Of a DNA stretch of 62,061 bases, positions 483-62,061 are shown piece by piece. The translations under genes were made by a program, and so were the position numbers. How positions within the stretch are numbered: the stretch's first letter is position 1; the number at the start of each line of letters is the position of its first letter. Below the pieces are notes generated by a model. It saw only the letters and a program-made list of their open reading frames with translations, did no database searches and was not told the origin of the DNA. The stretch lies in IMG/VR virus record IMGVR_UViG_3300021285_000001, one strand, 5' to 3'. The DNA is from a virus.

Positions 483-1011
483 TGTCTTCGTCTCCTTCGT
501 AATATTTTACTATTTCATCGGCTTGCGCCTGTGAAATCCTTATGATTGGCATATTGTGCTTCTTGGCGAGTTCAATTTCCGCCTGCATACCTTCACTGAT
601 GCGGTCTCCGAATACCCAGAGTTCGTCGCACCGTTTCAGGACTTCGGCGGCGAGTTCCAGTCCGAGGTTTCGCTCGCCTGGGCTGAATTCGTCCATAAAC
701 CTTGTAAAAAGAAGGTGTGGGGCGATGGGCGTCGCGTGGCTGGCTACCGCTGCGCGGCTATACCATTCTGCGTTCCGCAGGTTTCGTTCCAGCCGCTTGC
801 GCCCCAGCTCGCCGGTGGCTCGCGGGTTGCAGGGGGAGCAGATATAAACGACGCGCTCGTAGTGGAGGTAATGTCCGGCGCACCAGCTCGCGCATCTCCG
901 CTTTTCTGCCGGTATGTAACTGTCGCAGGTCGCCGAGTTCATCTCTTTGGTGAGGCTTCCTGTTCGGCAGTTGCCGCAGAATTCTATCGGGTAAGTGTCG
1001 AAGGGCTTCAT
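475..1011 (-). CDS. Cys-rich N-terminus plus nucleoside 2-deoxyribosyltransferase-like (DUF4406-type) domain protein
   Basis: VYICSPCNP...APHLLFTRFMDE...CDELWVFGDRISEGMQAEIELAKKHNMPI resembles the DUF4406 / deoxyribosyltransferase-like pattern. Recognised by eye only. Confidence 0.45.
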   Translation of the reverse strand: MKPFDTYPIEFCGNCRTGSLTKEMNSATCDSYIPAEKRRCASWCAGHYLHYERVVYICSPCNPRATGELGRKRLERNLRNAEWYSRAAVASHATPIAPHLLFTRFMDEFSPGERNLGLELAAEVLKRCDELWVFGDRISEGMQAEIELAKKHNMPIIRISQAQADEIVKYYEGDEDNG

Positions 1012-1838
1012 TTCCCGTCCTCCTTCCCGTGGGTGAGCGTCTGCGGGAATTGCTGGATCAGGTCGTCGCCCCAGACGGCTCTCATCTCCTTGCTGTCCTT
1101 AATCAGGACGGCGGCTCCGGTCGCGCTGGCCGCGCTGATGATGTTCTCGATCCACTCGCGCTTCGGCGTGGTCTTTCCGCGTCGGTTGCCGGTCTCTGCG
1201 CCGATGATTACCCATTTGATGGCGGGTGGCAGTTTTCCATCCTTTCCGAACGCGCCCATCAGCGGCTCGATTGATAAAAAGCAGTTGTGCGCTTCGGAAT
1301 AGAAGAACGGCGTCGCGTCGTCCGTGATGGTCGTTCCGTACCAGTAGTTCTCTTTGGCGGGGAGTTGTCCTTTCGCTCCCGTGTCAATGAGGCGCTGCGG
1401 GTTTTTCGTCAGGAATAGGTAATTGTGCCACGGTGCCGCTTCGCAGGCTTCAAAAACGCGCCGGATCCATTCGTCCGGTACCCACGCTCCGAAAAGGTCA
1501 GCCATGCTGCAGACGAAAATGTTCGCGGGTTTCTTTTTCTGCGCGGGCATCGGCAGGCGGTATTCGTGAAGCGTCGGGGAGAAGCCGGTCGGGAATTGCA
1601 GGGGTGTTTTGCCTTCTGCTTTGAACGGCTCCGGCAGGACATAGAGGATGTTGCCCTTCATGTCCTTCGGGTCGTCCGGCAGCCATTGTTTGATCTGCCC
1701 GCTGCTCTTGTTCAGCCGGACGTCCCCGCAAAATCGGCGGGCGAGCTTCCTTGCGTAGCAATACTCGCAGGTGTGGAGGCATCCGGTTATCGGATTCCAC
1801 GTGAAGTCGCACCAGTCGATTGGGCTTTTGTTCATCAT
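1008..1838 (-). CDS. Phage Gp37/Gp68-family (DUF5131) protein with CX3CX2C cysteine motif
   Basis: N-terminus IDWCDFTWNPITGCLHTCEYCYARK is the family hallmark. C-L-H-T-C-E-Y-C matches the radical-SAM CX3CX2C spacing. Confidence 0.75.
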   Translation of the reverse strand: MMNKSPIDWCDFTWNPITGCLHTCEYCYARKLARRFCGDVRLNKSSGQIKQWLPDDPKDMKGNILYVLPEPFKAEGKTPLQFPTGFSPTLHEYRLPMPAQKKKPANIFVCSMADLFGAWVPDEWIRRVFEACEAAPWHNYLFLTKNPQRLIDTGAKGQLPAKENYWYGTTITDDATPFFYSEAHNCFLSIEPLMGAFGKDGKLPPAIKWVIIGAETGNRRGKTTPKREWIENIISAASATGAAVLIKDSKEMRAVWGDDLIQQFPQTLTHGKEDGK

Positions 1839-1924
1839 GTCGTTTCCTCCTTCTTGGCGGGGTTATAATCAAATCCCGCCGTTTTTGGTTTTAAGGTGTG
1901 GCTTTCGGTGGCTTTTTCTGCCCC

Positions 1925-2605
1925 TTATAACCACGATTGGTTGTTTCGGTCGTCCATCCACTTCCGGTATGTCTTGTAGTCCATGTCGCGGATTCGCTTC
2001 ATCACCGAAAGGATCAGCCATTTCTGCTCCTCGTGGGTCATCTCTCTGAAGGTCGGTTTCCGCTTTGTCCGCAGTCCTACGTATTGCCCTTTGTGGAGGT
2101 AGACCAGAATTCCGATGTCTGGCGGCACCAGCGGCTCGATCTCCTTGTAGATTTCCTCCGGCACGGCGTAGAAGTTCATGTTCCCGATGAAGTTGTGACC
2201 GTGTTCGCTCTTGAAGTCGCTCTTGCTGACTTTTATCTCGAAACAGGTCAGCAGGATCATCTGCGTTCCCATTTTGGTGATGCCGTTCCATTTGCAGGAG
2301 GTCTGTTCGCAGTAGGTTGGCAGCGGCTTCATTGCGTCGTGTCCGAGTTCACAGGTCAGGCTTTGTCTGAAGCCTTCCTTCCGCCACCCCGCAGGGCGGC
2401 AGATGTGCCGGTATTCAATGTCGCCGAAGTATTCCGATACCCTGACCGCGTCAACGATGCCACTCTGGGTCGTTCCGCACTCGGCGACCACCTCCAGCGC
2501 GGTGTGCTGTCCTCGAAACTTGTTGATCCTGATGTCGCCGATCTGGGCGGGCGACCATGCGAGGAGTGCCTGCTCGATGTTCTTGGTCATCTCCGTTTTA
2601 GCCAT
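1925..2605 (-). CDS. PD-(D/E)XK nuclease-fold protein, MmcB-like
   Basis: GIVDAVRV ... LLTCFEIKVSKSDFKSE ... NFYAVP fits a D...E.K nuclease core as in MmcB-type proteins. Confidence 0.45.
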   Translation of the reverse strand: MAKTEMTKNIEQALLAWSPAQIGDIRINKFRGQHTALEVVAECGTTQSGIVDAVRVSEYFGDIEYRHICRPAGWRKEGFRQSLTCELGHDAMKPLPTYCEQTSCKWNGITKMGTQMILLTCFEIKVSKSDFKSEHGHNFIGNMNFYAVPEEIYKEIEPLVPPDIGILVYLHKGQYVGLRTKRKPTFREMTHEEQKWLILSVMKRIRDMDYKTYRKWMDDRNNQSWL

Positions 2606-2954
2606 TGGCGCTGGTCTCCCTTCCGAAGCTGACCATTCCGCTTTCGAGCATTCGCGCCATCATCAGCTCGTTCAGCTCTAAAAACAGCAGGTCGCACGGG
2701 TCTTCCGTCTTGACCGTCTCACCGTTGACCGTGAGCGTCCCCGTTATGCTCCAGCATATTCCGTGTCGCTTTGTGCCTATCTCGATGCCGATGTCTCCGG
2801 TGTAAAATTCGGAGAATTCGCGCAGGATTTTCTCCGCTTCCTGTTTTGCCTTCTCAACGAGGCGCGGGACGTCGCGGGTGGTGCAGGAGAAGTAGTCGGG
2901 GTGTTCCTTCGAGTATTCCTCGTGGATCCGCTGGTGATATGTTATCGCGCTCAT
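2598..2954 (-). CDS. Hypothetical protein
   Basis: The internal Met (MSAITYHQ) has an AAGGAGG RBS. The upstream 67 codons of the tracked ORF overlap the VR2 gene and look like out-of-frame read-through. Confidence 0.5.
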   Translation of the reverse strand: MSAITYHQRIHEEYSKEHPDYFSCTTRDVPRLVEKAKQEAEKILREFSEFYTGDIGIEIGTKRHGICWSITGTLTVNGETVKTEDPCDLLFLELNELMMARMLESGMVSFGRETSANG

Positions 2955-2970
2955 TGTGTCGCCTCCTTCT

Positions 2971-2990
2971 CCGCCCCATGAAGGGGCTGG
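2971..2990 (-). promoter_or_regulatory. GC-rich hairpin 28 nt downstream of VR2 (DGR target-recognition-type element)
   Basis: ccgcccc-atgaa-ggggc(t)gg forms a 7-bp stem with one bulge. It is homologous to the hairpin at 28650-28670 and has identical 28-nt spacing from the VR end. Confidence 0.55.
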
Positions 2991-3001
2991 ATTTCGCTGA
3001 T

Positions 3002-3634
3002 TCACGGATTGATCAGGAAGCCGAACGCGACCCCGTAGGCGGAGTTCGCGATGTAGTAGTTGGCGGTGCCGTAGCTGTAGACATTCCAGAAGAAGTACGT
3101 GTAGCCCGTGTGCGGGGAACGGAGCCAGTAAAACCATGTACCGTTGTCTCCGCATTCTTTCACGCGGCTTTTCTCGGTGCTGTAAAGATTGAAGTGGATG
3201 TCTTCGTAGTCGCCTGTTCTGGGGTCGTTGGTGAGGTCGTCTCCGAACATCTCCGTCACGGAAGGGAGCCAGATTTCGTCGGGCGTTCCGCCCTCCACGA
3301 TTTTGCCGTTGATTTTCTGCTTGATTGCTCTGGGAACGATGACCGCTCTCAATTCATCCGGCAAAAGCGGGAGGATGTCCTCGCGCAGGTGGCGGCGCAT
3401 CTCCGAGGGGTTATATCCGCCTTTGTTCGTCCATTCCTTGTTCATTGCCCATTGCTCCGGCAGGCAGTCGTAGCAAACAACAGCGGCTGTGGCTCCGTAG
3501 ACGCCGGTGGCGGCGATCTCGTATTTGATTTCCTGTCCGTTCTTCAGCGTGTCGGTGATAACGGCTCCGAGGATGGGGTTTTCTGCGATTTCCTTCCAGT
3601 TGGTCTCTTTGGTGGTTTTGACTGTGATATTCAT
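3002..3634 (-). CDS. DGR variable protein 2 (small C-type-lectin-like/DUF6273-like target)
   Basis: C-terminus WFYWLRSPHTGYTYFFWNVYSYGTANYYIANSAYGVAFGFLINP parallels the fibre C-terminus and the TR. The upstream part (EIWLPSVTEM, MRRHLREDILPLLPDEL) parallels the fibre's penultimate domain. Confidence 0.8.
   Translation of the reverse strand: MNITVKTTKETNWKEIAENPILGAVITDTLKNGQEIKYEIAATGVYGATAAVVCYDCLPEQWAMNKEWTNKGGYNPSEMRRHLREDILPLLPDELRAVIVPRAIKQKINGKIVEGGTPDEIWLPSVTEMFGDDLTNDPRTGDYEDIHFNLYSTEKSRVKECGDNGTWFYWLRSPHTGYTYFFWNVYSYGTANYYIANSAYGVAFGFLINP
3019..3127 (-). repeat. DGR variable region 2 (VR2)
   Basis: Aligns to TR 28041-28152. By hand alignment there are 13 mismatches, all at TR coding-strand adenines, plus loss of one AAC codon from the (AAC)5 run. 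Confidence 0.85.
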
Positions 3635-3649
3635 TTTCGTTTCTCCTTT

Positions 3650-4723
3650 TCAAAAAAATCTATAATGGCAGCCTTCCGCGAGCTTCTCGTAGTTCTCGTT
3701 CAGAAGGTTGAGGGTCTTGATGATTCCCGCTGGTGTCAGATCGTAGGTCTTGGCGATCCACTCCGCTGCGATTTCGTCCATCATGGTGTTGTCCTCGGCG
3801 GTCGCTCTGCCGTTGGTCAGCTTGGTCTTTACATTGACGCTCACTGGCTGCGCCATTCCGATGGCGTAGGCAAGCTGCACCTCTACGCTCTGGATTTCGT
3901 CGAAGCGTTGAATGAGGTCGCAGGCGATTTTTCGAGCCATGTATGCGCCGCTGCGGTCTACCTTGCTGGGGTCTTTGCCGCTGAAGGCTCCGCCTCCTAC
4001 GGGGCAGTAGCCGCCGTATTGGTCGCATACGATCTTCCTTCCGGTCAGTCCTGCGTCCGCTTCGGGTCCGCCTATCGTCCACGGTCCCGCAGGATTGGCT
4101 ATGACCTTCGCTTTGTTGGTGTCGATTCCGCAGTCCCAGAGTATTTCGTGGATTCCGTGAATGACCGACATCTGCGCTATGCTTTCTTTGTGGCAGGCGC
4201 TCACAAGGACGGCTTTCACGCTGGAAATGTCGGGCGGCGCGTCAAGGTCGACGGTTACCTGGCACTTCGCGTCGCCTTTGAAGAAGGTATCGGGGTTGGT
4301 CTCGACGTCCTTTTCAATGGCCGCGATTATGCGGTTGGCAAGGTCAAAACCGAAGGGCAGGAGGCTCTCGGTCTCTCTGCAGGCGTATCCGTACATCATG
4401 CCCTGATCGCCAGCGCCCTGCGCTTCTCCTTCGCCGACGCCTGCGGCAATTTCGGGCGATTGCTTCTGTATGTAGGTCATGATGTGGTCGGCTTTGTATC
4501 CGAGTTTCTTTGCCACTCCGTTTACGATCTCGGCGTAGTTTATCTCGGCTCTGGTGGTGATTTCTCCGGCAAGGATTACGGTGGTATCCTTTACCAGCGT
4601 TTCGCAAGCCACGCGGCTGTCCTTATCTTGGCGCAGGCAGGCGTCGAGAACGGCGTCGCTGATCTGGTCTGCGTATTTGTCCGGGTGGTACCGGCTCACT
4701 TGTTCTGTACTGAATAGTCGCAT
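3650..4723 (-). CDS. metK: S-adenosylmethionine synthetase
   Basis: GEITT, GAGDQGMMYGYA and GGGAFSGKDPSKVDRS motifs. Start moved to MRLFSTEQ, which has a GAAGGAGG RBS. Confidence 0.93.
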   Translation of the reverse strand: MRLFSTEQVSRYHPDKYADQISDAVLDACLRQDKDSRVACETLVKDTTVILAGEITTRAEINYAEIVNGVAKKLGYKADHIMTYIQKQSPEIAAGVGEGEAQGAGDQGMMYGYACRETESLLPFGFDLANRIIAAIEKDVETNPDTFFKGDAKCQVTVDLDAPPDISSVKAVLVSACHKESIAQMSVIHGIHEILWDCGIDTNKAKVIANPAGPWTIGGPEADAGLTGRKIVCDQYGGYCPVGGGAFSGKDPSKVDRSGAYMARKIACDLIQRFDEIQSVEVQLAYAIGMAQPVSVNVKTKLTNGRATAEDNTMMDEIAAEWIAKTYDLTPAGIIKTLNLLNENYEKLAEGCHYRFF

Positions 4724-4736
4724 TGTCCAGCCTCCT

Positions 4737-5069
4737 TCAATCTTCAAACACTCTTATGAGGTCGCCCTGTATCCCGTATCCGAAGCACAGGCTTCCGTGG
4801 TCGCAAATAAGGGCGAGTTCTGGGGTTGTGAGCTTTGGCTCGTTTTTGTAAATGCGGTATAATGCGTGGTTGTATCCTGCTTTTCTGCCTATCACAACAT
4901 CGTAGTCACTGAAGCTGCAGTCGTCTCCGTCTTTTAGGTCAATCTTCACGTCGTTTCGGTAGACCTTATATCTATCGGTCAGCTCTTTGTGGATTTCGGC
5001 GTTCATCTGAGCTTTTTCTCTCTCGTTCTCCGTGAACGCAAAAGACGGGTATATTTTCTTTTCAATCAT
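4737..5069 (-). CDS. Hypothetical protein
   Basis: 110-aa ORF with normal composition, tightly packed in the operon. Confidence 0.5.
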   Translation of the reverse strand: MIEKKIYPSFAFTENEREKAQMNAEIHKELTDRYKVYRNDVKIDLKDGDDCSFSDYDVVIGRKAGYNHALYRIYKNEPKLTTPELALICDHGSLCFGYGIQGDLIRVFED

Positions 5070-8424: not shown

Positions 8425-9486
8425 TTATTTCGTTCTCCAGCTCTCCCAGTACATCTCCATTCCGGCGCACATCTCGCGGAGGCGGTCGAGGGTCTTTTCG
8501 GCGTTCCTCGTGTCTCCGAGTTTGCCGCCGTAGGTCGGCGTCATCCTGCGGATCAGTTCGTCTCCGGTGTAGTTGGTCGTTACGATGGTCGGCATATAAG
8601 CCTCGTACCGTGCGTTGATGATGGAGTAGATGTGGGTGTTTCCCCATTCGGTTGGTTGCTCGCTTCCGATGTCGTCAATGATGAGGAGGGGGATTTCCTC
8701 GTATAATCTCATGACTTCCGCTTCGGTCGCGGTGTCGTCCTTCTCGAAGGTGCTTTTTATCTTCGCCAGCAGGTCGATCATGGTCATACAAATGACCGCC
8801 GTTCCGCCCTGCATGAGTTGGTTGGCGATGGCGCAGGCGAGGTGTGTTTTGCCGGTGCCGTAGCTGCCGGTGATGAACAGCCCGTTCCGCTCCTTCTTCG
8901 GCGGTACCACGTTCCCGCGTTCGTCTTTGGTGGGGAGCATGATCGGGAAGCTGTCGGCGTATCTCTTGCACTTCTCGTATGCCTTCCGGTTGATGTCTGT
9001 TACCTCGAAACGGTCAAACGTCCGGTTTGCGAAGCGTCCACGGATCCCGCTCTCTCTGACGAGCCGTGCCACGCGCTTCCGCATCCATTCCATTTCCTTT
9101 TGGCGTTGTTCCTCGGCTTCGGCTTCCTTTTTCAGTCGTTCCTGTTCAGCCCAGTATTCCTGTGCCTTATCGCAGTCGCACCGTTCCGGCTCCTCAAACC
9201 ATAGAAAAACCTCATGCTTACCCTCGAAGTTCTTCAGTCCGTAGTGGTATAGCGTCTTTCCGCAGAATTGGCAGGTTTTCGGCTCCGGTGGATCCGTTCG
9301 CATCTTCCAGCCCTCTGCTATTGCTGTGTCGCTTCGGATTTGGAACCCGTTCGGCTCTTTGTCTTGGTCTTCATCCTCATTCGGATTTGAAGCCTGCGGG
9401 GGTGCCATTGCCGCCTTTTCTTCTCTGGTAAGCGGCACCGACATCGCTGCTGCTATCAGCCCGCCTATTGGCGTCATGTCTGCCAT
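8425..9486 (-). CDS. DnaC/IstB-like AAA+ helicase loader
   Basis: Walker A GSYGTGKTHLACAIANQL and Walker B LLIIDDIGSE, with an N-terminal CxxC-containing region. The exact start is uncertain because it overlaps the upstream ORF by about 110 nt. Confidence 0.85.
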   Translation of the reverse strand: MADMTPIGGLIAAAMSVPLTREEKAAMAPPQASNPNEDEDQDKEPNGFQIRSDTAIAEGWKMRTDPPEPKTCQFCGKTLYHYGLKNFEGKHEVFLWFEEPERCDCDKAQEYWAEQERLKKEAEAEEQRQKEMEWMRKRVARLVRESGIRGRFANRTFDRFEVTDINRKAYEKCKRYADSFPIMLPTKDERGNVVPPKKERNGLFITGSYGTGKTHLACAIANQLMQGGTAVICMTMIDLLAKIKSTFEKDDTATEAEVMRLYEEIPLLIIDDIGSEQPTEWGNTHIYSIINARYEAYMPTIVTTNYTGDELIRRMTPTYGGKLGDTRNAEKTLDRLREMCAGMEMYWESWRTK

Positions 9487-10201
9487 CGTCTCTCACCTCC
9501 TTGATTTCGTTGTCCCAGTAGCCGCCGTTCAGCCACGTCGCGGGGTATGGTATGTAGCGCCCATTTTCGCGCTGCCAGTCCTCGCTTCGCTTCTGAAGCT
9601 CGACGGCTTTCATGATCTTTTCAAAGAGCGCGGTGTTCGGTTTGATTTTCTTCCACGCTTTTACGGCGTTCTGTTTTGCCTTCTTGTTCGGGTAGGCTTC
9701 CCAGAAGGCGTCAAAGCGTTTTTCGAGCAGCGTCTCCGTTGACGGTGGCTGGTCGTCCGATTCCGCGTCGGCGTCCGCTGGTTTCGGGTCGCCGTTTTCT
9801 TCGTCTTTGTATGGTGCTGGCACAGTGCTTTCACTGTGCTTGTTTGGTGCTTCTTGTTCTCGGCATCCGGGCGGCGGGGGTATCTCGCTGTCTTTTTCCT
9901 TCATGTTGGGGTTTTGGTGCTTCGAGAAGTTGTCGATCTGGATGTATGCCGTTCCGTCCACCTCGTATCTGGTGATGAAGCCGGAGTCAGCGAGTTGCTG
10001 AAGCATTCCGTTCGCTTCCTCGGCGGTTACGTCGTCGTATCCCAGCAACGTCTTCTTAATTCGGAGAGGTCGGTCTTCAAGCCGCCCCTCTCGGTCTGCG
10101 ATGCACCATAGTCCGATGAACAGGAGCCGCGTCAGCGGGTCAAGCCCGCCCAGTATATCGTTGTCAAAGAACGCCGGTTTGATGTTTCTTGTTCTCGCCA
10201 C
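9377..10201 (-). CDS. Replication initiator / replisome organiser-like protein
   Basis: N-terminus NIKPAFFDNDILGGLDPLTRLLFIGLWCIADREGRLEDRP and C-terminal YPATWLNGGYWDNE are typical of phage replication organiser proteins. Located upstream of the loader. Confidence 0.6.
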   Translation of the reverse strand: MARTRNIKPAFFDNDILGGLDPLTRLLFIGLWCIADREGRLEDRPLRIKKTLLGYDDVTAEEANGMLQQLADSGFITRYEVDGTAYIQIDNFSKHQNPNMKEKDSEIPPPPGCREQEAPNKHSESTVPAPYKDEENGDPKPADADAESDDQPPSTETLLEKRFDAFWEAYPNKKAKQNAVKAWKKIKPNTALFEKIMKAVELQKRSEDWQRENGRYIPYPATWLNGGYWDNEIKEVRDDGRHDANRRADSSSDVGAAYQRRKGGNGTPAGFKSE

Positions 10202-10222
10202 TTGCGTTCCTCCTTCCTGTGG

Positions 10223-10924
10223 TTAGCATACGTACACCTCCGTGCCTGTCAGCTTCTGGACTGCCGTCTTGAAGCGGTCAGCGTCGCTGTTGTTGTTGGA
10301 AAGGTGCAGCAGGTATATTTGCTTTACGCTCCGCAGGTCGTTTGCTCGCAGCAGATCAAGGAAGTGTTCGAGGCTCATGTGGCTTTTGACCAGCCTCGGC
10401 ACGAGTTCCGGTGGAACGTAGCCCTTCCTTACGCTCTCCTCGATGATGTCCATGCTGTAGTTGCATTCTCCCATGATGTGTGTTAGTCCCTCGAAGCGGT
10501 ATTTGATGTAGTAGGTGTCTGTGAAATATAGGAGCTTCTCGCCGGTGGCTCTTGACGTCAGCAGGTAGCCGAGCGGCTCTTTCGCGTCGTGCTGGACATC
10601 GAAGGGAAGGACGGCAAACGTGCCGATCTGTATTTCCTTTAATGCCTCCACGGGCTTTGCACGATGCCCTGTGAGTTTGCTGGCGTCGAGCGTCCCTCTG
10701 CTGGCATAAATGTTCACGCCTGCTCTGGCGAGGTCTCCTGCGGCTTTGACGTGGTCTCCGTGTTCGTGTGTGATAAGGCAGCCAGTCAAATCACGAACGC
10801 GGAAATTCAGCGCCTTCTGTATGGCTTTCAGCGGGATCCCCGCATCGAGGAGCAGGGCTGTGGTGCCGTCGCTTACGCGGTAGGCGTTGCCGCTGCTTCC
10901 CGATGCGATGACCGTGATGTTCAT
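10223..10924 (-). CDS. Metallo-beta-lactamase-fold hydrolase
   Basis: ITHEHGDHVKA (HxHxDH) plus downstream His/Asp positions. Adjacent to the recT-like gene. Confidence 0.85.
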   Translation of the reverse strand: MNITVIASGSSGNAYRVSDGTTALLLDAGIPLKAIQKALNFRVRDLTGCLITHEHGDHVKAAGDLARAGVNIYASRGTLDASKLTGHRAKPVEALKEIQIGTFAVLPFDVQHDAKEPLGYLLTSRATGEKLLYFTDTYYIKYRFEGLTHIMGECNYSMDIIEESVRKGYVPPELVPRLVKSHMSLEHFLDLLRANDLRSVKQIYLLHLSNNNSDADRFKTAVQKLTGTEVYVC

Positions 10925-16137: not shown

Positions 16138-16359
16138 TCAGTTCTCGTTTTCCGAGAGTTGTTCGTCAAAAAAAATTTGCGGGGTTACTCCGAAGCCGTC
16201 CATGATGATCTTCAGAAATTCGTCGGCGGTCATTCTGACCAGTCCTGTTTCGAGCTGGCTCATTCTCTTTGGGCTGATGCCTGCTCTCTTTCCGACGTGC
16301 GTCTGGGTGATTCCTCTGGCTTCGCGGTAATCTCGCACCATTTGGGCTGCTGTCTTCAT
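16138..16359 (-). CDS. Cro-like XRE-family repressor
   Basis: YREARGITQTHVGKRAGISPKRMSQLETG; 73 aa; divergent from the cI-like gene. Confidence 0.8.
   Translation of the reverse strand: MKTAAQMVRDYREARGITQTHVGKRAGISPKRMSQLETGLVRMTADEFLKIIMDGFGVTPQIFFDEQLSENEN
16144..16156. promoter_or_regulatory. Operator-type palindrome CTCGTTTTCCGAG (copy inside the 3' end of the cro-like gene)
   Basis: Identical 13-mer to 16414-16426. It has a CTCG-N5-CGAG dyad. Confidence 0.5.
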
Positions 16360-16534: not shown

Positions 16535-16936
16535 ATGCTCTCGTTTGGCGAGCGTCTGAAAAGGGCGCGTGAAAGAAAAGGGATGACGCAGGCGCAGGTG
16601 GCGAAAGCGACCAGCATCAGCGACAAGTCTTTGTCCCGTTATGAAAACGGCGCATCTGCGCCCGATCCTGATACCATTCTCGAATTGATCAAGCTCTACG
16701 ATGTCTCTGCTGATTATATTATGGGGCTGTCTCCTGAAATGGGTCATGCTACTGATCCGGCTTCCGGCACCTCTCTTGCTGCTCCTCGTTTGGCTTCGGC
16801 TCCCGACGCTCACGAAATGCTGGAGGGGCTTTCTGGCGATGCCCGCAAAAAAGCGGAGGAGTACATCGAAATGTTGAAAACGCTCGATGAGGTAAAATCC
16901 GGCGAGAATTTCCTCGACGTTAAAAAGAAAGCCTGA
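16535..16936 (+). CDS. CI-like XRE-family repressor
   Basis: FGERLKRARERKGMTQAQVAKATSISDKSLSRYENG...YDVSADYIMG. Divergent from the cro-like gene; GGAGG RBS. Confidence 0.8.
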   Translation: MLSFGERLKRARERKGMTQAQVAKATSISDKSLSRYENGASAPDPDTILELIKLYDVSADYIMGLSPEMGHATDPASGTSLAAPRLASAPDAHEMLEGLSGDARKKAEEYIEMLKTLDEVKSGENFLDVKKKA

Positions 16937-16986: not shown

Positions 16987-17460
16987 TTGCGTCTGAATAT
17001 TGTATGTTCTGGTTGTCACCGTCGCTTTTCTATTGATGCTCCGAACGGGCAGGGCGAGCAGACGGTGCGCTGTCCTTATTGCTCTGCTCCTTGTATTCTG
17101 AATGTCCAGCGGACGGCTCCGGTCTCCGGTCCCGCTGCTGTGGCCGCAAAGGTCAGGCGCGGGGAGGTTGTTTCAAATGTTATCTGGATCGTCCTCGGTG
17201 TTCTTCAATGCGTCACGCTTTACGCCGCCGCTGCCGGTGTCTGGAATGTTATCAATGCGATTTTGGCTCTACGAAACGTGAAGCATATCCAGCCGGGGAA
17301 TGCTGGGGTTGTTCCTTATTTCGACCAGCGCAGGACGTGGCTCATCGTTCTGGCGGTCGTGAATATCGTCCTCGGTGGCGTTGTTGGTATTGTTCTTGTT
17401 CTGTGGGAGTGGCATCTCCGCGACTTCGTGCTGCGTAACCGTAGCGCGTTTGAGGGATGA
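16987..17460 (+). CDS. Zinc-ribbon membrane protein (prophage-expressed; possible exclusion/immunity function)
   Basis: CSGCHRRF...CPYCSAPC is followed by three hydrophobic helices. TTG start; lies between the repressor and the integrase. Confidence 0.5.
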   Translation: MRLNIVCSGCHRRFSIDAPNGQGEQTVRCPYCSAPCILNVQRTAPVSGPAAVAAKVRRGEVVSNVIWIVLGVLQCVTLYAAAAGVWNVINAILALRNVKHIQPGNAGVVPYFDQRRTWLIVLAVVNIVLGGVVGIVLVLWEWHLRDFVLRNRSAFEG

Positions 17461-17514
17461 GGTATTCGGTTTAAGGTTTAGGGTATAAGGTATGAGGTAT
17501 AAGGCAGTTTTTGT
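17454..17514 (+). repeat. Heptamer tandem array GGTWTRR x about 7, then GGCAGTTTTTGT (locus A)
   Basis: gggatga ggtattc ggtttaa ggtttag ggtataa ggtatga ggtataa ggcagtt, read directly. A related array lies at 57084-57145. Confidence 0.8.
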
Positions 17515-17562
17515 TTCGTGAAAACACGGTGCTTGCACCGTACTTGAAAGGGGGCGGGTCTG

Positions 17563-18675
17563 TTGGCTGCTTATAAAAACGAAAAACGCGGCACCTGGTA
17601 TGTGTCGTTCCGATATAAGGATTGGGATGGTACCCGCCGCCAGAAAAAGAAGGAAGGCTTCAAAACGCGGCGGGAGGCTCTGGACTGGGAGCGCGATTTT
17701 CTCGCGTCGAAGTCTGGCACTACCGCCATGTCCTTCGGTGCGCTCTGCGAGATTTATATGGCTGACTGCGCCACGCGCCTCCGTGCCACGACGGTCGAGA
17801 ATAAGCAATGGCTTTTTGATTCTAAAATCCTACCGGCGTTCCGTTCGGTTGCCGTCCGCGATATTACGCCCACGATGATTCGGCGCTGGCAGAACGATCT
17901 GCTCTCCGATCCGTTTGGCTATTCTCCGACCTACCTCAAAACGATAAATAATCAAATGTCGGCGGTGATGAATTATGCCGTCCGCTTCTATGGTCTTCCT
18001 CAAAATCCGGTACCGCTGTGCGGTCCCTTCGGAAAGAAAAAGGCGGAGGAGATGCAGTTCTGGACGCGGGACGAGTTCCGGCGCTTCATCGCCTGTGTAA
18101 AAAAACCAGCCGCACGGCTGGCTTTCGAGTTGCTATTCTGGACGGGTATGCGCTCTGGTGAGTTGATGGCGCTCACTCTGGCTGACGTCGATTTCGGGTC
18201 GTCCCATATCTCTATCACGAAAACGGCGGCGCAGGTGAACGGGGAGACGGTTATCAATCCTCCGAAAACGCCACGATCAAACCGGACGGTCGCGGTGCCT
18301 CGCTTCCTGCTGGCGCTGATCAGCGACTACGCCGACCGGCTTGTTGATTATGAGCCGCAGGATCGGCTGTTCTATTTTACAAAGCATTATCTGAAGTATG
18401 AGCTGGATGCGGCTGCTGCCGCTGCCGGTGTGAAACGTATCCGTGTTCACGACCTCCGGCACTCCCACGCTTCGCTCTTGATTGAGATGGGCTATTCGCC
18501 GCTGCTGGTGTCCGAGCGTCTGGGTCATGAAAATATCCAGACGACCCTGCAGACTTATTCCCATTTGTACCCCGACAAACAGGGCGAGGTGGTCTCTCGT
18601 TTGGAAAACGACGAAAGCGAGAATTACTCCGCCGTTCTCTCGGACTTCGAGAGGAAAATTGAAAATTTGCAGTAA
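17563..18675 (+). CDS. int: Tyrosine site-specific integrase
   Basis: N-terminal SAM-like domain (GTWYVSFRYKDWDG) and catalytic region RVHDLRHSHASLLIEMG...LGHENIQTTLQTYSHLY. TTG start after GAAAGGGGG. Confidence 0.92.
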   Translation: MAAYKNEKRGTWYVSFRYKDWDGTRRQKKKEGFKTRREALDWERDFLASKSGTTAMSFGALCEIYMADCATRLRATTVENKQWLFDSKILPAFRSVAVRDITPTMIRRWQNDLLSDPFGYSPTYLKTINNQMSAVMNYAVRFYGLPQNPVPLCGPFGKKKAEEMQFWTRDEFRRFIACVKKPAARLAFELLFWTGMRSGELMALTLADVDFGSSHISITKTAAQVNGETVINPPKTPRSNRTVAVPRFLLALISDYADRLVDYEPQDRLFYFTKHYLKYELDAAAAAAGVKRIRVHDLRHSHASLLIEMGYSPLLVSERLGHENIQTTLQTYSHLYPDKQGEVVSRLENDESENYSAVLSDFERKIENLQ

Positions 18676-19914: not shown

Positions 19915-20876
19915 TGTGCTTCCTTCCTTTCGTTTAAGAGTTCGCTGGGCGTTTTGTCTCGTATGGATACCCAGCCGGTGTTTTTCTCTTGGTCTGGCTT
20001 CCTCCGTATAAAGTGGGTGCAGGTGTCGCAGCTCTCTTTGTGCAGTTCGCACCCCACCGTCTTTATGTAGTGGAGGCAGAGGTCTTTTTGAAAATAATCC
20101 CGCAGGGCTTCTCGTTGCCTCCGGTAGTATCGTTTGCAATATTCGGGGTTTTGCAGTCTTTCGTATTTGCCCCTTACTGCGCTGCCGGATCGGTTGAGCT
20201 TTCGCCCGATTTCCTCCCAGCAATGTCCCGCCTCTCTCATCTGGAGGAGTGTTTCGACCTCGCTGTCCTGCCATTGCCGGTCGTAGTTCCGAATGGGGCG
20301 GTAAACCAGACCGAGCGTCATGATCCGCCTCTTGATTGCTCCTTCGGTGCGATTCATCAGGCAGCATAGGTCGTTGTAGGTGTACTTATATTGCTTGAGA
20401 TAAAATTCGAGGGCTTGGTCTTCGGCTTTCGTCCACGGTGTTTTCTTCATCTTGGCAAGATATGAGGCGCGTCTGGCTTCCTGCACCCATTCCGGCTCGA
20501 CGCCGAACGTTCCCTCGCTGAAGGCGTCAAAGTCGATCAGGTCTTTGTGCTGCTCCGCCCATTCCCAGAATTCGTCGATGTCTATCATGGCGTAGCGCTT
20601 ATCAATGCTTTTCTGGTAGTGGATCGGAAGTCCGAGGCGCACCCAGCGGTCTTTTATCCATCCGTAGCTGTTTCGCTTGCCGATGGCGTCGCAAAACTGC
20701 AGGAGGGTGATTCGCGTTCCGCTGTGAATGTGCCGTCCCAGCCCTCGGCGTCCCGCTTTGAGTTTGACGGCGTTCACGCTTCTGTTCAGGTGCTTTGCTA
20801 TTGCCGGTATCGAAACCTCGCCCCATCTGTTGTCGAGGTAGTCCAGTTCCTCCTTTGTCCAGTTTTTCGGTCCCAT
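19911..20876 (-). CDS. Myb/SANT-like HTH repeat protein (putative regulator)
   Basis: Repeated W-x-E-E-(L/D)...L..G.S...IA..L.RS..AV modules: WTKEELDYL...IAKHLNRSVNAVKLK, WTKAEDQAL and WQDSEVETLL...IGRKLNRSGSAVRGK. Confidence 0.5.
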   Translation of the reverse strand: MGPKNWTKEELDYLDNRWGEVSIPAIAKHLNRSVNAVKLKAGRRGLGRHIHSGTRITLLQFCDAIGKRNSYGWIKDRWVRLGLPIHYQKSIDKRYAMIDIDEFWEWAEQHKDLIDFDAFSEGTFGVEPEWVQEARRASYLAKMKKTPWTKAEDQALEFYLKQYKYTYNDLCCLMNRTEGAIKRRIMTLGLVYRPIRNYDRQWQDSEVETLLQMREAGHCWEEIGRKLNRSGSAVRGKYERLQNPEYCKRYYRRQREALRDYFQKDLCLHYIKTVGCELHKESCDTCTHFIRRKPDQEKNTGWVSIRDKTPSELLNERKEAQ

Positions 20877-26284: not shown

Positions 26285-26692
26285 TTACTCGCCCGCATAG
26301 ACGACCTCGCTCATTTCCAGCAGGCATTCTTCGAGAAAGTCGTTCCGGTTTTCCAGTTCCTTGACCTTCTCCGTCAGTTCCGCCCTTGTAAGCACTTCCT
26401 CCTCGTCGGTGTCGTCGGGGATTTCAGGGTCTTCATCTTCCGGGTCTTCGCCTTTGATTTGGTCATACTCCTCTTTTGTGATGAATTCGGCGTATGGCTC
26501 TTTCTCCCCATGAGGCATATTCCCGTTGATGAGGTAGATGGTCTCGTTGTCCTCTCCGATGATGCCCTGTGCTTCTTCCTCGGTGCATCGAACGAGCATT
26601 CCGTTGCTCTGCCACCTGACGTAAACAAGGACTTCGATTTTCTCCGCCCCTGTGAGCCTGTCTTCTGCGTCAAACGTTTTAATGTAATGCAT
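26285..26692 (-). CDS. Hypothetical acidic protein
   Basis: Start MHYIKTF with an AAGGAGG RBS. Overlaps the RT stop by 14 nt. Confidence 0.5.
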   Translation of the reverse strand: MHYIKTFDAEDRLTGAEKIEVLVYVRWQSNGMLVRCTEEEAQGIIGEDNETIYLINGNMPHGEKEPYAEFITKEEYDQIKGEDPEDEDPEIPDDTDEEEVLTRAELTEKVKELENRNDFLEECLLEMSEVVYAGE

Positions 26693-27821
26693 ACGATTCT
26701 TCCTCCTTGAAAACAAAAAGTTTATTGAATAGGTCTCCTGCGTTCTGGATCGTGTGCCATGCGTTGAATTTCTGCGCGTAGCCTCGCCAGCTCTGCCAGC
26801 CGTTCCAGATGTCCCTGAAGGTTATCGTTCCTTCTTCGAGGCGCTTTTTCAGGCGCTTCATCTTCCGTCTCATCCGGGTGATGCTTTTCTTGCAGATTTT
26901 TCGGATAACCTTTCCGGTCTTGGTCAGGAATATCCGGGCTTTCAGCCATATAAAACCGTGCGAAAGTTTCACGAGCTGGGTCTTCTTCTGGTTGAGCGTG
27001 ATTTTCAGCATTTGGCAGATTTCCGCGATTCCCTCGCGGCACTTCTGCAGGTATTCCTTGCTTGGGTGGATGAGGTAGCCGTCGTCCATGTATCTGCCGT
27101 ATCCTCTTATCCGCAGGACTTCCTTCACGTAATGGTCGAGCCGGTTTGCCGAAGCCAGCGCCAGCACTTGGCTGATCTGGCTTCCCAGTCCGAGACCGAT
27201 GTCTCCGAAAGCGTCCACGAAATGCCCGGCGAGCTGCTTTATCTTTTCGTCCGTGAAGGTCTTCTCGAATATCCCCTTGACGATCTCGTGGGAGACGTTG
27301 TCGAAAAACTTTGAAAAGTCAAAAAGCAGGATGTAGCCTTCCTGTCCGTGCTTCCGGTAGTGTTCGTGCAGGTGCTGGGTCATGCGGCGCATACAGAAGT
27401 CGTAGCCTTTGTGCTTCATGCTCGCCCCGTTGTCGTAGACGAAGGTCGGGGTAAGCGCCGGAACGAGCGCGTTGTCGCATAGGCACCGTTGCACCACTCG
27501 CTCTCCGATGACGGTGCTGCGGATGTGTCGGTGTTTGCCTCGCTCGTAGAGGTCGAATTCGTAAAAGCCGGGGCTTCTGTATGTCCCGTTCTGCAGGCGC
27601 TGTCTGGTCTGAAAAATCGAAAGCGGGGCGGTGGATATGTACCGCTGGACGCTCGCCTTCCATGAAACGCCTCGCCTGCAGCACCGGTACGACCGGTAGA
27701 GGTTATCGTATGAAAATACGGCGTTGAAATTATCGGCTGTCTCAAGCCTTCGGGCTTTCTTTTCAGCCCTTGCCTTGATTCTCCTCTGGTATCGTTGTTC
27801 TTTTCTCTGTTCGCTTGTCAT
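26679..27821 (-). CDS. DGR-type reverse transcriptase
   Basis: ILLFDFSKFFDNVSH, DGR-characteristic LGLGSQISQVLA and GYGRYMDDGYLIH (YMDD). GGAGG RBS. The TR lies 219 nt upstream. Confidence 0.92.
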   Translation of the reverse strand: MTSEQRKEQRYQRRIKARAEKKARRLETADNFNAVFSYDNLYRSYRCCRRGVSWKASVQRYISTAPLSIFQTRQRLQNGTYRSPGFYEFDLYERGKHRHIRSTVIGERVVQRCLCDNALVPALTPTFVYDNGASMKHKGYDFCMRRMTQHLHEHYRKHGQEGYILLFDFSKFFDNVSHEIVKGIFEKTFTDEKIKQLAGHFVDAFGDIGLGLGSQISQVLALASANRLDHYVKEVLRIRGYGRYMDDGYLIHPSKEYLQKCREGIAEICQMLKITLNQKKTQLVKLSHGFIWLKARIFLTKTGKVIRKICKKSITRMRRKMKRLKKRLEEGTITFRDIWNGWQSWRGYAQKFNAWHTIQNAGDLFNKLFVFKEEESYALH

Positions 27822-28040
27822 ATAAAATCCTCCGTCACCCCGTACCCCTGTCGGAAGGTTGCGTATAGGGGCATAGCGTCACCGGCTATGAAACGCGGCA
27901 TCACCTTCAAGCCGCGCCATGCAAGCAGCGTCCAGCCGGACGCATCAGGGCGAATATTTACCTTTCGGATGGTTATGCTCTCCTTCTCTCCTGTCAAGTC
28001 TGATTTCGCCGTTTCCGGTTACTGTGTCTGCTTTGAGAGG

Positions 28041-28174
28041 AGCCGAACGCGACCCCGTAGGCGTTGTTCGCGTTGTTGTTGTTGTTGGCGTTGCCGTTGC
28101 TGTTGACATTCCAGAAGTTGTTCGTGTTGCCCGTGTTCGGGGAACGGAGCCACCAGTTCGTCGCTGCGCCGGTC
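28041..28174 (-). repeat. DGR template repeat (TR)
   Basis: 134-nt non-coding copy of VR1, rich in AAC codons including (AAC)5. The tracked ORF 27994-28197 is only this repeat read in frame. Confidence 0.9.
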
Positions 28175-28607: not shown

Positions 28608-28649
28608 CGGTGTTCCTCCTTTCATTCACGATTTCCGCGCTTTCGGGTA

Positions 28650-28670
28650 TCCGCCCCACGAGGGGGCGGA
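28650..28670 (-). promoter_or_regulatory. GC-rich hairpin 28 nt downstream of VR1 (DGR target-recognition-type element)
   Basis: tccgcccc-acgag-ggggcgga: 8-bp stem, 5-nt loop, between the fibre stop and the avd-like start. Confidence 0.6.
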
Positions 28671-28687
28671 TTGCCCTTGATGTCTGA

Positions 28688-31600
28688 TTAAATGCAGAAG
28701 CCGAACGCGACCCCGTAGGCGTTGTTCGCGCCGTAGTTGCTGATGGCATTGCCGTAGCTGTCGACATACCAGAAGATGTACGTGAAGCCCGTGCCCGGGG
28801 AACGGAGCCACCAGTTCGTCGCCGCGCCGGACCCGAAGTTCAGCTTCTTGATCCTGCTCGTGTCGTTCGTGAAAACCGTAAACGTCGCATCGGATTCCAA
28901 AGAGTAGGGGGATGTGGTCGTTTGCGAGCCGATCTCCTTGACGCTCGGTATCCAGATTTTGTCCTCGGCGGGCGGATCCACGAGACCCGTCGCCTGGTAG
29001 CCGGTGTTCGAGTGAACGTAAACGGTCAGGATGAGCTGCTGCCATGTCGTCGGTAGGGCGTTGAAGATGCGGGCGTTCAGCCATGTTCTGAACGGCATCG
29101 CTTTCCATCCGCCTGCGTTGCTGTTCGCCGAGTTCATGACGTGCGTTTCCTCCAGCAGGTCTTTAAGCAGGAACGCGCAGTTGACGTATCTTTGGTTATC
29201 TGCACGAGTGAAGTTTCGGAACGCATACTGTGAGCTGCCGACCGCCTGCATCTTGAATGTCTGGCGCGGCCACGATACGAGTTCGCGGCAGGCGTCGTCT
29301 CCAAGGTCACCGTCCCACAGTTTTGCCCAGTAGACCGTTCCCTTGCCGTAATTGTCCACGTAGCCGTCGTTGGCGACCTGTGCGCCGAATACGAGCGGTG
29401 CTGTGTGTTCTGGCGCGGTGGTCTGTGTCAGGGCGCTGTAGGAGATTGCGTTGCCGTTCTTGTTGGATGCGTAGACATAGAGCGTGGCGTCTCCTTTTTT
29501 CTTCCTGATGACGGTGATCTGGCGCACTCCGTTGCTCGAAACCTGCAGGGCGGACGACGATCCGTATCTGACGCTTCCTCCTGTCGCGTATCTCAACAAG
29601 AAGCCGTTACTGTGGTAGCAAGCGGCAAGGCAGCCGCCTGCGGCGCTGCTGGTGTCGAATGCGAAATCTACCACGAGGGTGAAGGATTTGTCGCTGTCAA
29701 ACAGAAGGATGTCGTTGCTGTCGATCTGCGGTTTCAGGTAGTTCGTTCCGTCGAACGTCTGGGGGCTGTCAAGGCTCACGAGTTCATGTGCTGTTACGTT
29801 GCTGAAATCGAAATCACGCCCAGCCACAATGTCGATGGTGTCGCCGGAGGATACGACGTTGTTGTTTGCTCCTGTCGGCGACAGGATTTCGGTCGCCACC
29901 AGTGCATGGAGTTCGGTTGCGTTCATCTGCGCCAGCGTTTTGCCGGACGGAACGGTCGCGGATTCGTATTGTGCATAAACATCGAGGTCTCCGGTGATGT
30001 AGCCGGTCGATTTGTCCCAGCCTTTGAACAGGTAATAGGTGGCGTAGTCTCCGTCGCTTGGGTTCACCGGTGTGTTACCGGAATAAGCCACGCTGTCGCC
30101 ATATTCTGCCGTCTGTGTTTCGAGGAGCGTCGTTCCGTTGTAGAAGCGGACGGTGTATGTCCTCGTGGACGCTGCGTAGTGGGCGTAGATGGTCGTATTG
30201 GCGGTAATCGAGATCGCACTCAAGTCTGGGATGACCGACCCGCCGTCCGTCCAGCTCCAGCCGTCAAATGTGAATGTCTCCGCTGCTGTGCTGGGTTTCG
30301 TTGGCGTCGGGATCGGGTCAACATAGAGGTAGCGCGGGTCTGTCGGTGCCGAGCCTTGACCTACCCTCTGGGTGTTCAGCGTCGCTCCGTTGTAGTTCTT
30401 GAACGTGACGGTGTATGTCGGCACTTCGGTGTCGTAGGTGATCGTCAAGTTCGGGAACGCCGACCGTAATGCCGCGAGGTCGTCTGCGGTTATCATGGTT
30501 ACGTGAGCGGTGCCGGTCAATACGAAGTTGTCCGTGTTGTCGCCGCTTCCACTGATACCCGCGAGCGTTGCGAGGTGCTTCAGCAGGTTGGCGCTGTTCA
30601 TCGTCCAGTTCACGCCGATGAGACGTCCTCTGGTGAGGTTTGTGGCGTTGGTTACGAGCGTCAGCGTATCAATCAACGGGCAGTTCTCGATCCATACGCT
30701 CTGCAGGTTGGCGGCGCTCATGGTGAACGTCTCCAGTTCTGTGAGGTCTCTTGCGATGAGCTGTCGGAGCGCGTTCAGTTCTGCTACGCGCAGGGGCGCT
30801 CTCTGGGCGAATGTCACGCCGGTGATTGCCGACCCTGTGGTGTAGATTTCCTCCAGCGCCTTCAATGCCGATAGGTCGAGACCTTGCGCGAGGTTTGGCG
30901 TTCCGCGTAGGTCGATTTTCTCCATCAGGATGTTGTTTCCGAAGGAGACGCCGCCGTTCTCGGAGTTCAGCGAGGTGTTCTGGTACCCTTCTTCGCTTGA
31001 GCCGAGGATTGCCTGCTTCAGCTTCTTGGCTGACGACAGGTCGGCGAATTTCGTATAAAGGGCTGCGAGTGAGCCGATTGCCGCGATGTTGCTCGCGCTG
31101 TAGATGTAGGTTTCGAGATCGTTCAGGGACGCGCCTGCGGGCATTTCGATGTTGTATGTTTGCCCTCTGGTCGCTCTCACTCTGACGGTGCCTGCGTTGC
31201 CGTATTTGACCGTGATGTAAGTCGAGGCGTATGGAACGATCCCATTGATGTCTCCGGAAGGCTCCACGCCGCTCCACGTTTCCGGTGCGTTTGCGCGAAG
31301 GCTGATTCGGTCAGCGGTCGAAACGGACCCGCCGTATTTTGCGCTCATGTACGGCTCCTGGTATGTTTCAAACTGGATGAGCTGGTCTTCCTTCGTGCCG
31401 AGCATCGTCCTGATGTAGCGCTGCTCCTGTGCGAAAATGTACGGGGAGAAGTATTTTCCCCACATATCCTCGATGATGAGGGCTTCCGGTCTGTTGTCGC
31501 GGTATGCCTTCCATTTGGCGAGGATACGCTCTGCGCTGAACGCTCCGGCTGCTTCCAGTTGTTTGAACATCGTCTCCAGCTCGCTGCGGAAAAGGTCGCG

Positions 31601-57083: not shown

Positions 57084-57145
57084 GGTATGAGGTTTAGGGT
57101 ATATCGGTTTAAGGTATAGGGTTTAAGGTTTAAGGCAGTTTTTGT
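57084..57145 (+). repeat. Heptamer tandem array GGTWTRR x about 7, then GGCAGTTTTTGT (locus B)
   Basis: ggtatga ggtttag ggtatatc ggtttaa ggtatag ggtttaa ggtttaa ggcagtt. Lies between the terL stop and the portal start. Confidence 0.8.
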
Positions 57146-57200
57146 GTGGTGCTTTTTCTGTGCTTGCATAATGCTGGCACGGTGCTTGTATGATGTCGCC

Positions 57201-61777: not shown

Positions 61778-61988
61778 GCTTTCCATCTCCTCTCTGAAGC
61801 CACGCGAGGCAGTCTTCGAGCGACGTGAAGTCTTCCGTCCATGCGTCGCCGGTGCTGTTGTCCACGCCGACGTAGATGTCGCCGTCTTTGTGGTAAAAGC
61901 GCCCGATGGGGGAATAGTTACCGTCGCCGTTCCCGCTTAACAGCAGGGAGTTGATTTCTTCCGTGTTCAGTTCTCTGATTTCGTCCAT
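61767..61988 (-). CDS. Hypothetical protein
   Basis: 73-aa ORF following ssb across the circular junction. Its first 54 nt are duplicated at window positions 1-54. Confidence 0.45.
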   Translation of the reverse strand: MDEIRELNTEEINSLLLSGNGDGNYSPIGRFYHKDGDIYVGVDNSTGDAWTEDFTSLEDCLAWLQRGDGKHEQ

Positions 61989-62061
61989 TTTTGCGTCCTC
62001 CTTTAGAATGGCAGGTCTTCGTCGGGCGGTACCTCCGAGAAGTCGCTCGGCGTGGCGGCGG
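61935..62061. repeat. Terminal overlap, copy B
   Basis: Identical to 1-127. It duplicates the SSB 3' end and the start of the 61767-61988 ORF. Confidence 0.95.

Follow-up and report, generated by a model that had tools for sequence, protein, structure and literature searches.

The 210-aa ORF in the replication region of the phage genome analyzed here is very probably an active second target of the genome's DGR and a member of a known family, with the evidence of activity coming from variation between samples and not from reads within one population. Below, "the window" denotes the whole 62,061-nt stretch of DNA that was analyzed. A reading made from the sequence alone had placed the ORF at 3,002 to 3,634, with a VR at 3,019 to 3,127 (here VR2) aligned to positions 28,041 to 28,152 of the template repeat (TR), and these coordinates and counts proved exact (Table 1).

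The window is the circularly assembled genome of a temperate gut phage (61,934 bp; bases 1 to 127 are repeated at 61935 to 62061), and a megablast search with 25 kb of it returned no matches to GenBank phages. All 71 genes kept by a codon-usage gene call trained on minus-strand ORFs are on the minus strand, and the lysogeny module consists of plus-strand genes (a CI-like HTH gene, a 157-aa ORF, and a tyrosine integrase gene). The minus-strand order begins with genes for a regulator, SbcC-like and RecT-like proteins, an MBL hydrolase, a DnaC-like protein, a C5-methylase, RecU, a 110-aa ORF, and metK. It proceeds through the 210-aa ORF, a 118-aa ORF, and MmcB-like, DUF5131, DUF7768, and SSB genes and then, across the circular junction, through ParB-like/methylase genes to those of TerL and portal. 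The tape measure, Baseplate_J, Mu Gp48, 924-aa repeat protein, and 2029-aa protein genes follow, and Avd, TR, RT, and endolysin come after them. The 210-aa ORF had been described as lying between metK and the MmcB-like gene. The first neighbor is correct, but the 118-aa ORF separates the gene from the second. The terminase gene is located about 6.2 kb downstream of the 210-aa ORF across the circular junction.

Two repeats were observed elsewhere in the genome. A 63-nt direct repeat (78% identical; 17475-17537 and 57106-57168) carries short GGTATAAG/GGTTTAAG-type iterons and has one copy just upstream of the integrase gene and the other in the gap from TerL to portal; the repeat may represent a set of regulator-binding or arm-type sites. 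The 924-aa protein (34790-37564), encoded upstream of the giant fiber, contains about 11 tandem units of 114 to 117 nt with a conserved DTVSYHQWSP-like core and has no Pfam match.

The DGR cassette contains an RT in which the DGR-type motifs [I/L]GxxxSQ and YxDD are present as LGSQISQ and YMDD; one member of the RT cluster, P0136, comes from a 1.07-Mb contig. TR encodes WLRSPNTGNTNNFWNVNSNGNANNNNNANNAYGVAFG, and none of its 34 adenines occupies a third codon position. The gene immediately upstream of TR is Avd-like, an identity taken from a weak profile match alone, and a Pfam search of its product gave no matches. VR1 is 87% identical to TR over 135 nt; within the 112 nt common to VR2, 14 of its 15 mismatches are at TR adenines. 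The protein that carries VR1 has its DUF6273 domain at aa 1869 to 2028.

Table 1. Positions of the DGR components, the second target, and neighboring genes in the window
Feature	Position	Strand	Basis or remark
Gene of the 210-aa standalone DUF6273 protein, probable second DGR target	3002..3634	-	ORF; Pfam PF19789
VR2, 109 nt, residues 170-206	3019..3127	-	aligned to TR 28041-28152
IMH-like 3′ end of VR2, GGGGTCGCGTTCGGCTTC	3017..3034	-	same GC-rich end as VR1
GC-rich hairpin TCCAGCCCC-TTCAT-GGGGCGGA	2970..2991	-	fold; ~25 nt 3′ of VR2; seven pairs, one bulged A
703-nt cassette (RBS, gene, VR2, IMH, hairpin, next gene's RBS)	2955..3657	-	absent from L010
metK	3650-4747	-	upstream neighbor of the 210-aa ORF
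118-aa ORF	2598-2954	-	downstream neighbor of the 210-aa ORF
MmcB-like gene	1925-2605	-	comes after the 118-aa ORF
Template repeat (TR)	28038..28172	-	repeat families and alignment; 28041-28152 common to VR2
DGR reverse transcriptase (RT)	26679..27821	-	Pfam RVT_1; phrog_1423, E = 6e-80; motifs LGSQISQ and YMDD
Avd-like accessory protein, 140 aa	28203..28625	-	phrog_3206 "Avd protein of DGR," E = 1.6e-7
VR1	28696..28830	-	3′-terminal part of the gene (28688-34777) of the 2029-aa protein
GC hairpin ATCCGCCCC-CTCGT-GGGGCGGAT	28649..28671	-	26 nt 3′ of VR1
TerL	57201-58700	-	
Cro-like HTH gene	16138-16359	-	preceded by the promoter match
Strongest sigma70-like match in the region	16433-16405	-	11 of 12; precedes the Cro-like gene
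CI-like HTH protein	16535-16936	+	lysogeny module
157-aa ORF	16987-17460	+	lysogeny module
Tyrosine integrase	17563-18675	+	lysogeny module

The aligned stretch of VR2 comprises the last 37 codons of the ORF. A local alignment of VR2 with TR has 13 mismatches, every one of them opposite a TR adenine (10 A>T and 3 A>C), and a single 3-nt gap, which lies inside the (AAC)5 run and leaves VR2 one codon short. The adenine-only pattern of mismatches is highly significant (hypergeometric P = 1.5e-8, 32 A among 109 aligned TR bases). Moreover, the TR pattern with N at adenines occurs at only three sites in the window, namely TR, VR1, and VR2, versus 0.05 expected by chance. These results support the proposal that the same TR wrote VR2. 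The stretch of 5′ TR homology that VR2 lacks relative to VR1 is 20 nt (VR1-TR homology extends to 28172), a trivial departure from the 22 nt given earlier. Chance similarity and plain duplication of the fiber tip were considered and rejected: the two proteins are about 30 to 37% identical outside the VR, while the VRs match TR at non-A bases.

VR2 also has the 3′ elements of a DGR target. In the window and in every relative examined, GGCTTC ends all VR1 and VR2 sequences where the TRs have GGCTCC. Each of the two VRs is followed by a GC hairpin (Table 1), unlike TR, 3′ of which no hairpin was found. In close relatives, the VR2 hairpin reads CCGTCCC-TTCAT-GGGACGG; in the window, it reads CCAGCCCC-TTCAT-GGGGCGG and thus differs by a compensatory T-A to C-G change and the bulged A. 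Among homologous genes from other phages, 13 of 15 have a perfect 6- to 9-bp GC stem 15 to 25 nt past the stop codon. Wu et al. 2018 (PMC5758913) describe an IMH and a GC inverted repeat as elements of DGR targets. The bulged hairpin or the missing codon could reduce the homing efficiency of the window VR2.

Comparisons among relatives suggest ongoing rewriting of VR2. When the gene of the window is set against that of relative L001, 18 differences fall in the 109-nt VR2 and 11 in the remaining 524 nt (Fisher P = 3e-8); 14 of the 18 are at TR-adenine positions, and the flanks are about 95% identical. The 90%-identity cluster of the window protein has eight members, or alleles, which hardly differ outside the VR and, within it, are different at each AAC-templated position. 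The relatives have two TR alleles, which can be told apart at non-adenine positions. VR2 allele P0122 (L016-18) bears the markers TGGCTTCGC, GTG, AGCGGCGGC, GT, and CAGTACGGCG of the TR allele of L020/L022/L024, and the window VR2 bears the markers of the window TR. The L016-18 VR2 and the L020/L022/L024 TR allele come from the same three samples, and the longest recorded contig is 57,223 nt for both P0122 and the protein of that TR allele. Information transfer from TR predicts that TR, VR1, and VR2 will change together at non-A bases in this way. In L001 (10508-10626) and L002 (1457-1575), VR2 combines both TR alleles, matching L020 at its 5′ markers and the window at a 3′ marker; such chimeras could reflect partial homing or a recombinant TR.

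The length of the AAC run is variable as well. Relative to TR, the difference is 0 in the window VR1 and −1 codon in the window VR2; +1 in L009 VR1, −1 in L012 VR1, and +1 in P0123 VR2; +2 in L020 VR1 and 0 in L021 VR1; and +1 in L024 VR1 and +3 in L016 VR2. Hence, VR and TR differ in length in seven of nine pairs of this phage group, VR1 included. All of the differences are inside the (AAC)n run and consist of whole NNC, or AAC-derived, codons, and VR2 alleles of 210, 212, and 213 aa are found inside one 90% cluster. In-frame TR/VR indels adjacent to AAC repeats, present in about 7% of DGRs, have been attributed to template slippage (Wu et al. 2018, PMC5758913). The codon missing from VR2 had been put down to either slippage or decay; the NNC-codon differences in most pairs, VR1 among them, support slippage, or reiterative copying of the (AAC)n run, and disfavor decay. 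In-frame length variation in the AAC run therefore appears to be a routine output of this DGR, whose diversity goes beyond substitutions.

The protein is small and consists of a single recognizable domain, Pfam PF19789 (DUF6273; residues 64 to 202, E = 5e-17, 62.6 bits against a gathering cutoff of 23.5), with VR2 at the C-terminal end of it. One such domain is common to the 210-aa and 2029-aa proteins (aa 51-208 and 1868-2029, 37% identity), and not the last two domains of the giant fiber, as had been proposed. In an AlphaFold2 model built from 84 sequences, the protein is one compact globular domain (pLDDT 93, pTM 0.90) in which VR2 corresponds to the last beta-strands, and an N-terminal beta-prism or beta-sandwich attachment domain is absent. 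No transmembrane segment or signal peptide was detected (maximum Kyte-Doolittle 19-residue mean of 1.4, hydrophilic N terminus), which agrees with the earlier description of a small, soluble-looking protein without a fiber shaft. A receptor-masking lipoprotein similar to Llp of phage T5 was considered and rejected, as a signal or lipobox sequence is absent.

DUF6273 has been described in published work as C-type-lectin-like. Foldseek matched the model to many small viral DUF6273 proteins (TM 0.7 to 0.8), and its one meaningful match in the PDB was the DUF6273 N-terminal domain of the T. ramosa IgA peptidase, a domain to which the paper on that peptidase gives no binding role. The family is large: 222 homologs of the 210-aa protein were found, mostly of about 205 to 215 aa, and an exhaustive HMMER search at E ≤ 1e-3 matched the representatives of 1962 clusters (50% identity), 412 of which reach E ≤ 1e-10. 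Of the best 150 HMMER representatives, 96 by our count are 180 to 270 aa in size and match over nearly their full length. Several 90% clusters of small DUF6273 proteins contain 1000 to 3700 distinct sequences each, as is expected of hypervariable genes. Judging from MAG titles, most hosts are Clostridia of the gut and rumen. When IMG/VR was searched with a peptide pattern for the 210-aa protein, no matches were returned, and the window's nearest relative in that database lacks the gene.

The position of the small gene is kept in at least four phage backbones. It comes after SSB, recombinase, RecU, or methylase genes, 3 to 6 kb upstream of the terminase gene and co-oriented with it, in the window phage and its close relatives, in L003 (a Mu_F/portal phage), in L004 and many IMG/VR contigs of the P22-portal/Terminase_3 group, in L005 and L027 (GpA-terminase), in Roseburia phage Shimadzu, and in Dulem virus 34. 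The 210-aa protein has the features of this standalone class: a size of about 200 to 235 aa, full-length homology, a location in the replication/methylase block, and no TR or RT within 10 kb. None of the homologs in the phages compared is in a tail module. The sequence-only reading had reasoned that its proposal would fail if homologs were placed as fiber or baseplate components; instead, unrelated phages keep the gene in the replication module. No TR or RT was found within ±10 kb of 22 to 23 homologous genes, which suggests that these homologs are remote targets too, or orphans.

Other arrangements were also observed. L044, which carries a distant homolog (10001-10537), has a second VR-like 3′ end about 10 kb downstream, at about 20270-20404, with 23 mismatches and no adenine bias; because that bias is absent, the copy is probably a second VR and not a TR. 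Another phage group (L065, L090, and L106 in IMG/VR) has two small DUF6273 genes of 227 to 230 aa, one of which is 1.5 kb upstream of RT and the other 7 to 10 kb downstream, past the endolysin gene. In a scan of IMG/VR with the IMH-like 18-mer of a related group, both target size classes were recovered, at times on one contig.

The gene of the 210-aa protein is not present throughout its own lineage. L010 (IMGVR_UViG_3300028797_000179) has about 91% nucleotide identity to the window, an identical TR, VR1, and the same fiber and RT, and it has 13 nt in place of the 703-nt cassette between metK and the 118-aa gene. The gene is therefore accessory and dispensable in the lineage. The slot directly upstream of metK varies among relatives: it holds a 110-aa phrog_10455 protein in the window (4737-5069), an Acb2/Tad1-hairpin protein in L001 (8495-8899) and L013 (1519-1899), and a Lar restriction-alleviation protein in L016-19 (L016 1467-1910). 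A Tad2-like gene is located 1 to 2 kb upstream in the L004 group. These neighbors suggest an accessory, counter-defense-rich zone around the VR2 gene. Elsewhere in the early block, the MBL-fold hydrolase (window 10223-10924) has an L001 ortholog with a weak match to Pfam Anti-Pycsar Apyc1 and may be a further counter-defense gene. In L001, metK (8912-9985) was called as two ORFs of 282 and 68 aa, due to either a frameshift or an assembly error.

The location of the gene also bears on when it may be expressed. It had been assigned to an early operon, and its placement agrees with that: it is part of a co-directional array downstream of the Cro-like gene and the sigma70-like match, among recombination, replication, and methylase genes. 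Early expression, however, was deduced solely from gene order, and the late genes are on the same strand, with terminase only those few kilobases away. A promoter and terminator scan around the gene gave no signal beyond shuffle expectation and is, therefore, silent on timing.

From the established DGR mechanism, we infer that TR RNA (28038-28172) would be reverse-transcribed by an Avd-RT complex with misincorporation opposite adenines and that the resulting cDNA would replace VR2 as well as VR1. VR2 would be recognized through its own IMH-like GC-rich end and the hairpin downstream of it, and homing would rewrite residues 170 to 206, with slippage or reiterative copying on (AAC)n adding or removing whole NNC codons. 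The product of the self-contained accessory cassette would be a DUF6273 protein of one domain that lacks an export signal. As for its role, we tentatively suggest, at somewhat less than even confidence, that it may act as a diversifiable extracellular ligand binder, produced in the lytic phase and, at lysis, either set free or attached to virions, that is, as an accessory adhesin or receptor binder. An extracellular role is favored because DUF6273 is found elsewhere in secreted and surface proteins and in fiber tips and because the same TR serves the fiber tip. Against it are the lack of a signal peptide and the location of the gene outside the structural module.

Three other explanations were weighed. 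VR2 could be an inactive relic that was written once by TR, or arose as a duplicate of the fiber tip, and has drifted since, with its missing codon as a mark of decay. Its one-codon deficit, its 20 nt less of 5′ homology than VR1, and its bulged hairpin stem are in keeping with such a history. Drift, however, would strike all bases, while every mismatch is at an adenine; the IMH-like end and the hairpin are retained; the eight cluster members have different VR2 alleles in genes that are nearly identical elsewhere; and, in relatives, VR2 agrees at the non-A markers with the TR allele that goes with it. VR1, an undisputed target, shows comparable length differences, which match the slippage described by Wu et al. 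2018 (PMC5758913). On this evidence, we regard a relic as very unlikely. The 210-aa protein could instead be an essential, Mtd-like structural receptor-binding subunit that docks on the tail fiber and is encoded out of place. Its predicted fold and the position of the VR at the C terminus of a lectin-like domain are analogous to Mtd, and receptor binding has been favored for small DUF6273 targets (PMC10743442; 10.1101/2024.10.15.618418). Yet L010 has the same fiber, TR, and RT without the gene, so virions of this lineage can function without the protein. The single globular domain of the model, which is devoid of an N-terminal attachment domain, and the homologs, which are never in a tail module, add to the case against such a subunit, and we consider it quite unlikely.

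Alternatively, the protein could be an early-expressed, hypervariable binder that acts inside the cell in counter-defense or host takeover, with variants that track host defense or other cytoplasmic proteins. The absence of a signal peptide and a transmembrane segment, the placement in the early/replication block beside metK and DNA methylases, and the Acb2/Tad1-like, Lar-like, and Tad2-like neighbors in relatives would all suit such a binder, as would the presence/absence polymorphism that is typical of accessory counter-defense genes. This support is circumstantial throughout, however: the pre-terminase region is also rich in unrelated morons, the shared TR implies a similar kind of binding surface in the protein and the fiber tip, and no published example of an intracellular target of a phage DGR was found. 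Hence, we view an intracellular role for the 210-aa protein as unlikely. Its extension to the whole group, in which the small DUF6273 proteins of gut Clostridia phages would be cytoplasmic, DGR-programmable, antibody-like binders for counter-defense or host takeover, strikes us as an improbable conjecture; if true, it would mean that the specificity of the binder is redrawn by the same TR that retargets the tail fiber.

Whatever the role of its product, the window offers a clean natural case in which one TR would serve two very different proteins whose genes are separated by 25 kb and have an IMH and a hairpin apiece, and the 703-nt cassette may be useful for defining a minimal portable DGR target. 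Comparison with other systems sharpens the question of role: small hypervariable lectin-like proteins are abundant, are encoded in a pre-terminase accessory block, and carry no export signal, and the 210-aa one is dispensable in its lineage.

Mtd of Bordetella phage BPP-1, a further DGR target, is a protein of 381 aa with N-terminal beta-prism and beta-sandwich domains that is encoded beside the cassette and sits on the tail fibers. The 210-aa protein resembles Mtd in having a C-terminal, putatively lectin-fold DGR surface, an IMH with a downstream hairpin, and A-specific mutagenesis. The N-terminal attachment domains and the cassette-adjacent gene, in contrast, are features of Mtd only, since the 210-aa protein has a single domain, is encoded 25 kb from the cassette, and is missing from L010 despite the same fiber.

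Closer counterparts are found among DUF6273 targets. Like the window, the Faecalibacterium phages Toutatisvirus, Lelie, and CP11 have one TR and a large and a small DUF6273 target with the VR at the C-terminal end of DUF6273. The second target of Toutatisvirus is 17,480 nt from TR. The large target of Toutatisvirus is Hoc-like/tentaclin and its small target is core (98.8% of genomes), whereas the small gene of the window phage is accessory, and a tblastn search (E ≤ 0.05) detected no similarity between the 210-aa protein and the small targets of Toutatis, Lelie, and CP11. The tgt2 proteins of nd4 and nd12 are small, DUF6273-only second targets of 234 and 294 aa (Baykov et al. 2023, PMC10743442), in which the VR is a beta-hairpin on a C-type-lectin-like domain (PMC10743442). 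Both targets of nd4/nd12 are inside the DGR cassette, in contrast to the window phage, whose second target is in the replication block 25 kb away.

The nearest precedent is orf43 of Roseburia phage Shimadzu, which is homologous to the 210-aa protein (residues 22 to 209, 29% identity, pairwise E = 4e-18). Like the 210-aa protein, it has a C-terminal VR and shares one TR with a tail gene; it is 209 aa long and is encoded in the replication module, between a DNA methyltransferase gene and erf, about 12 kb from RT. VR2 of orf43 is mutated in virion reads, isolates, and mouse viromes, and both VRs of Shimadzu diversify (bioRxiv 10.1101/575076, Cornuault et al.). The window phage differs from Shimadzu in its backbone, its TR, the distance of about 25 kb, and a primary target of 2029 aa. 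More broadly, in the survey of Wu et al. 2018 (PMC5758913), a second target that is not adjacent but lies within 50 kb was recorded for many phage-associated DGRs. The window phage is like the phage DGRs of that survey (PMC5758913) in its non-adjacent second target and its in-frame AAC-run indels, but such indels occur in seven of nine VR-TR pairs of its group versus about 7% of the surveyed DGRs. The earlier statement that a target of this kind is "not the usual receptor-binding role" thus overstated its novelty, as non-adjacent second phage targets and homologs of the 210-aa protein were already documented. A second remote target is already represented in the literature by homologs, and the understanding of DGRs is unchanged.
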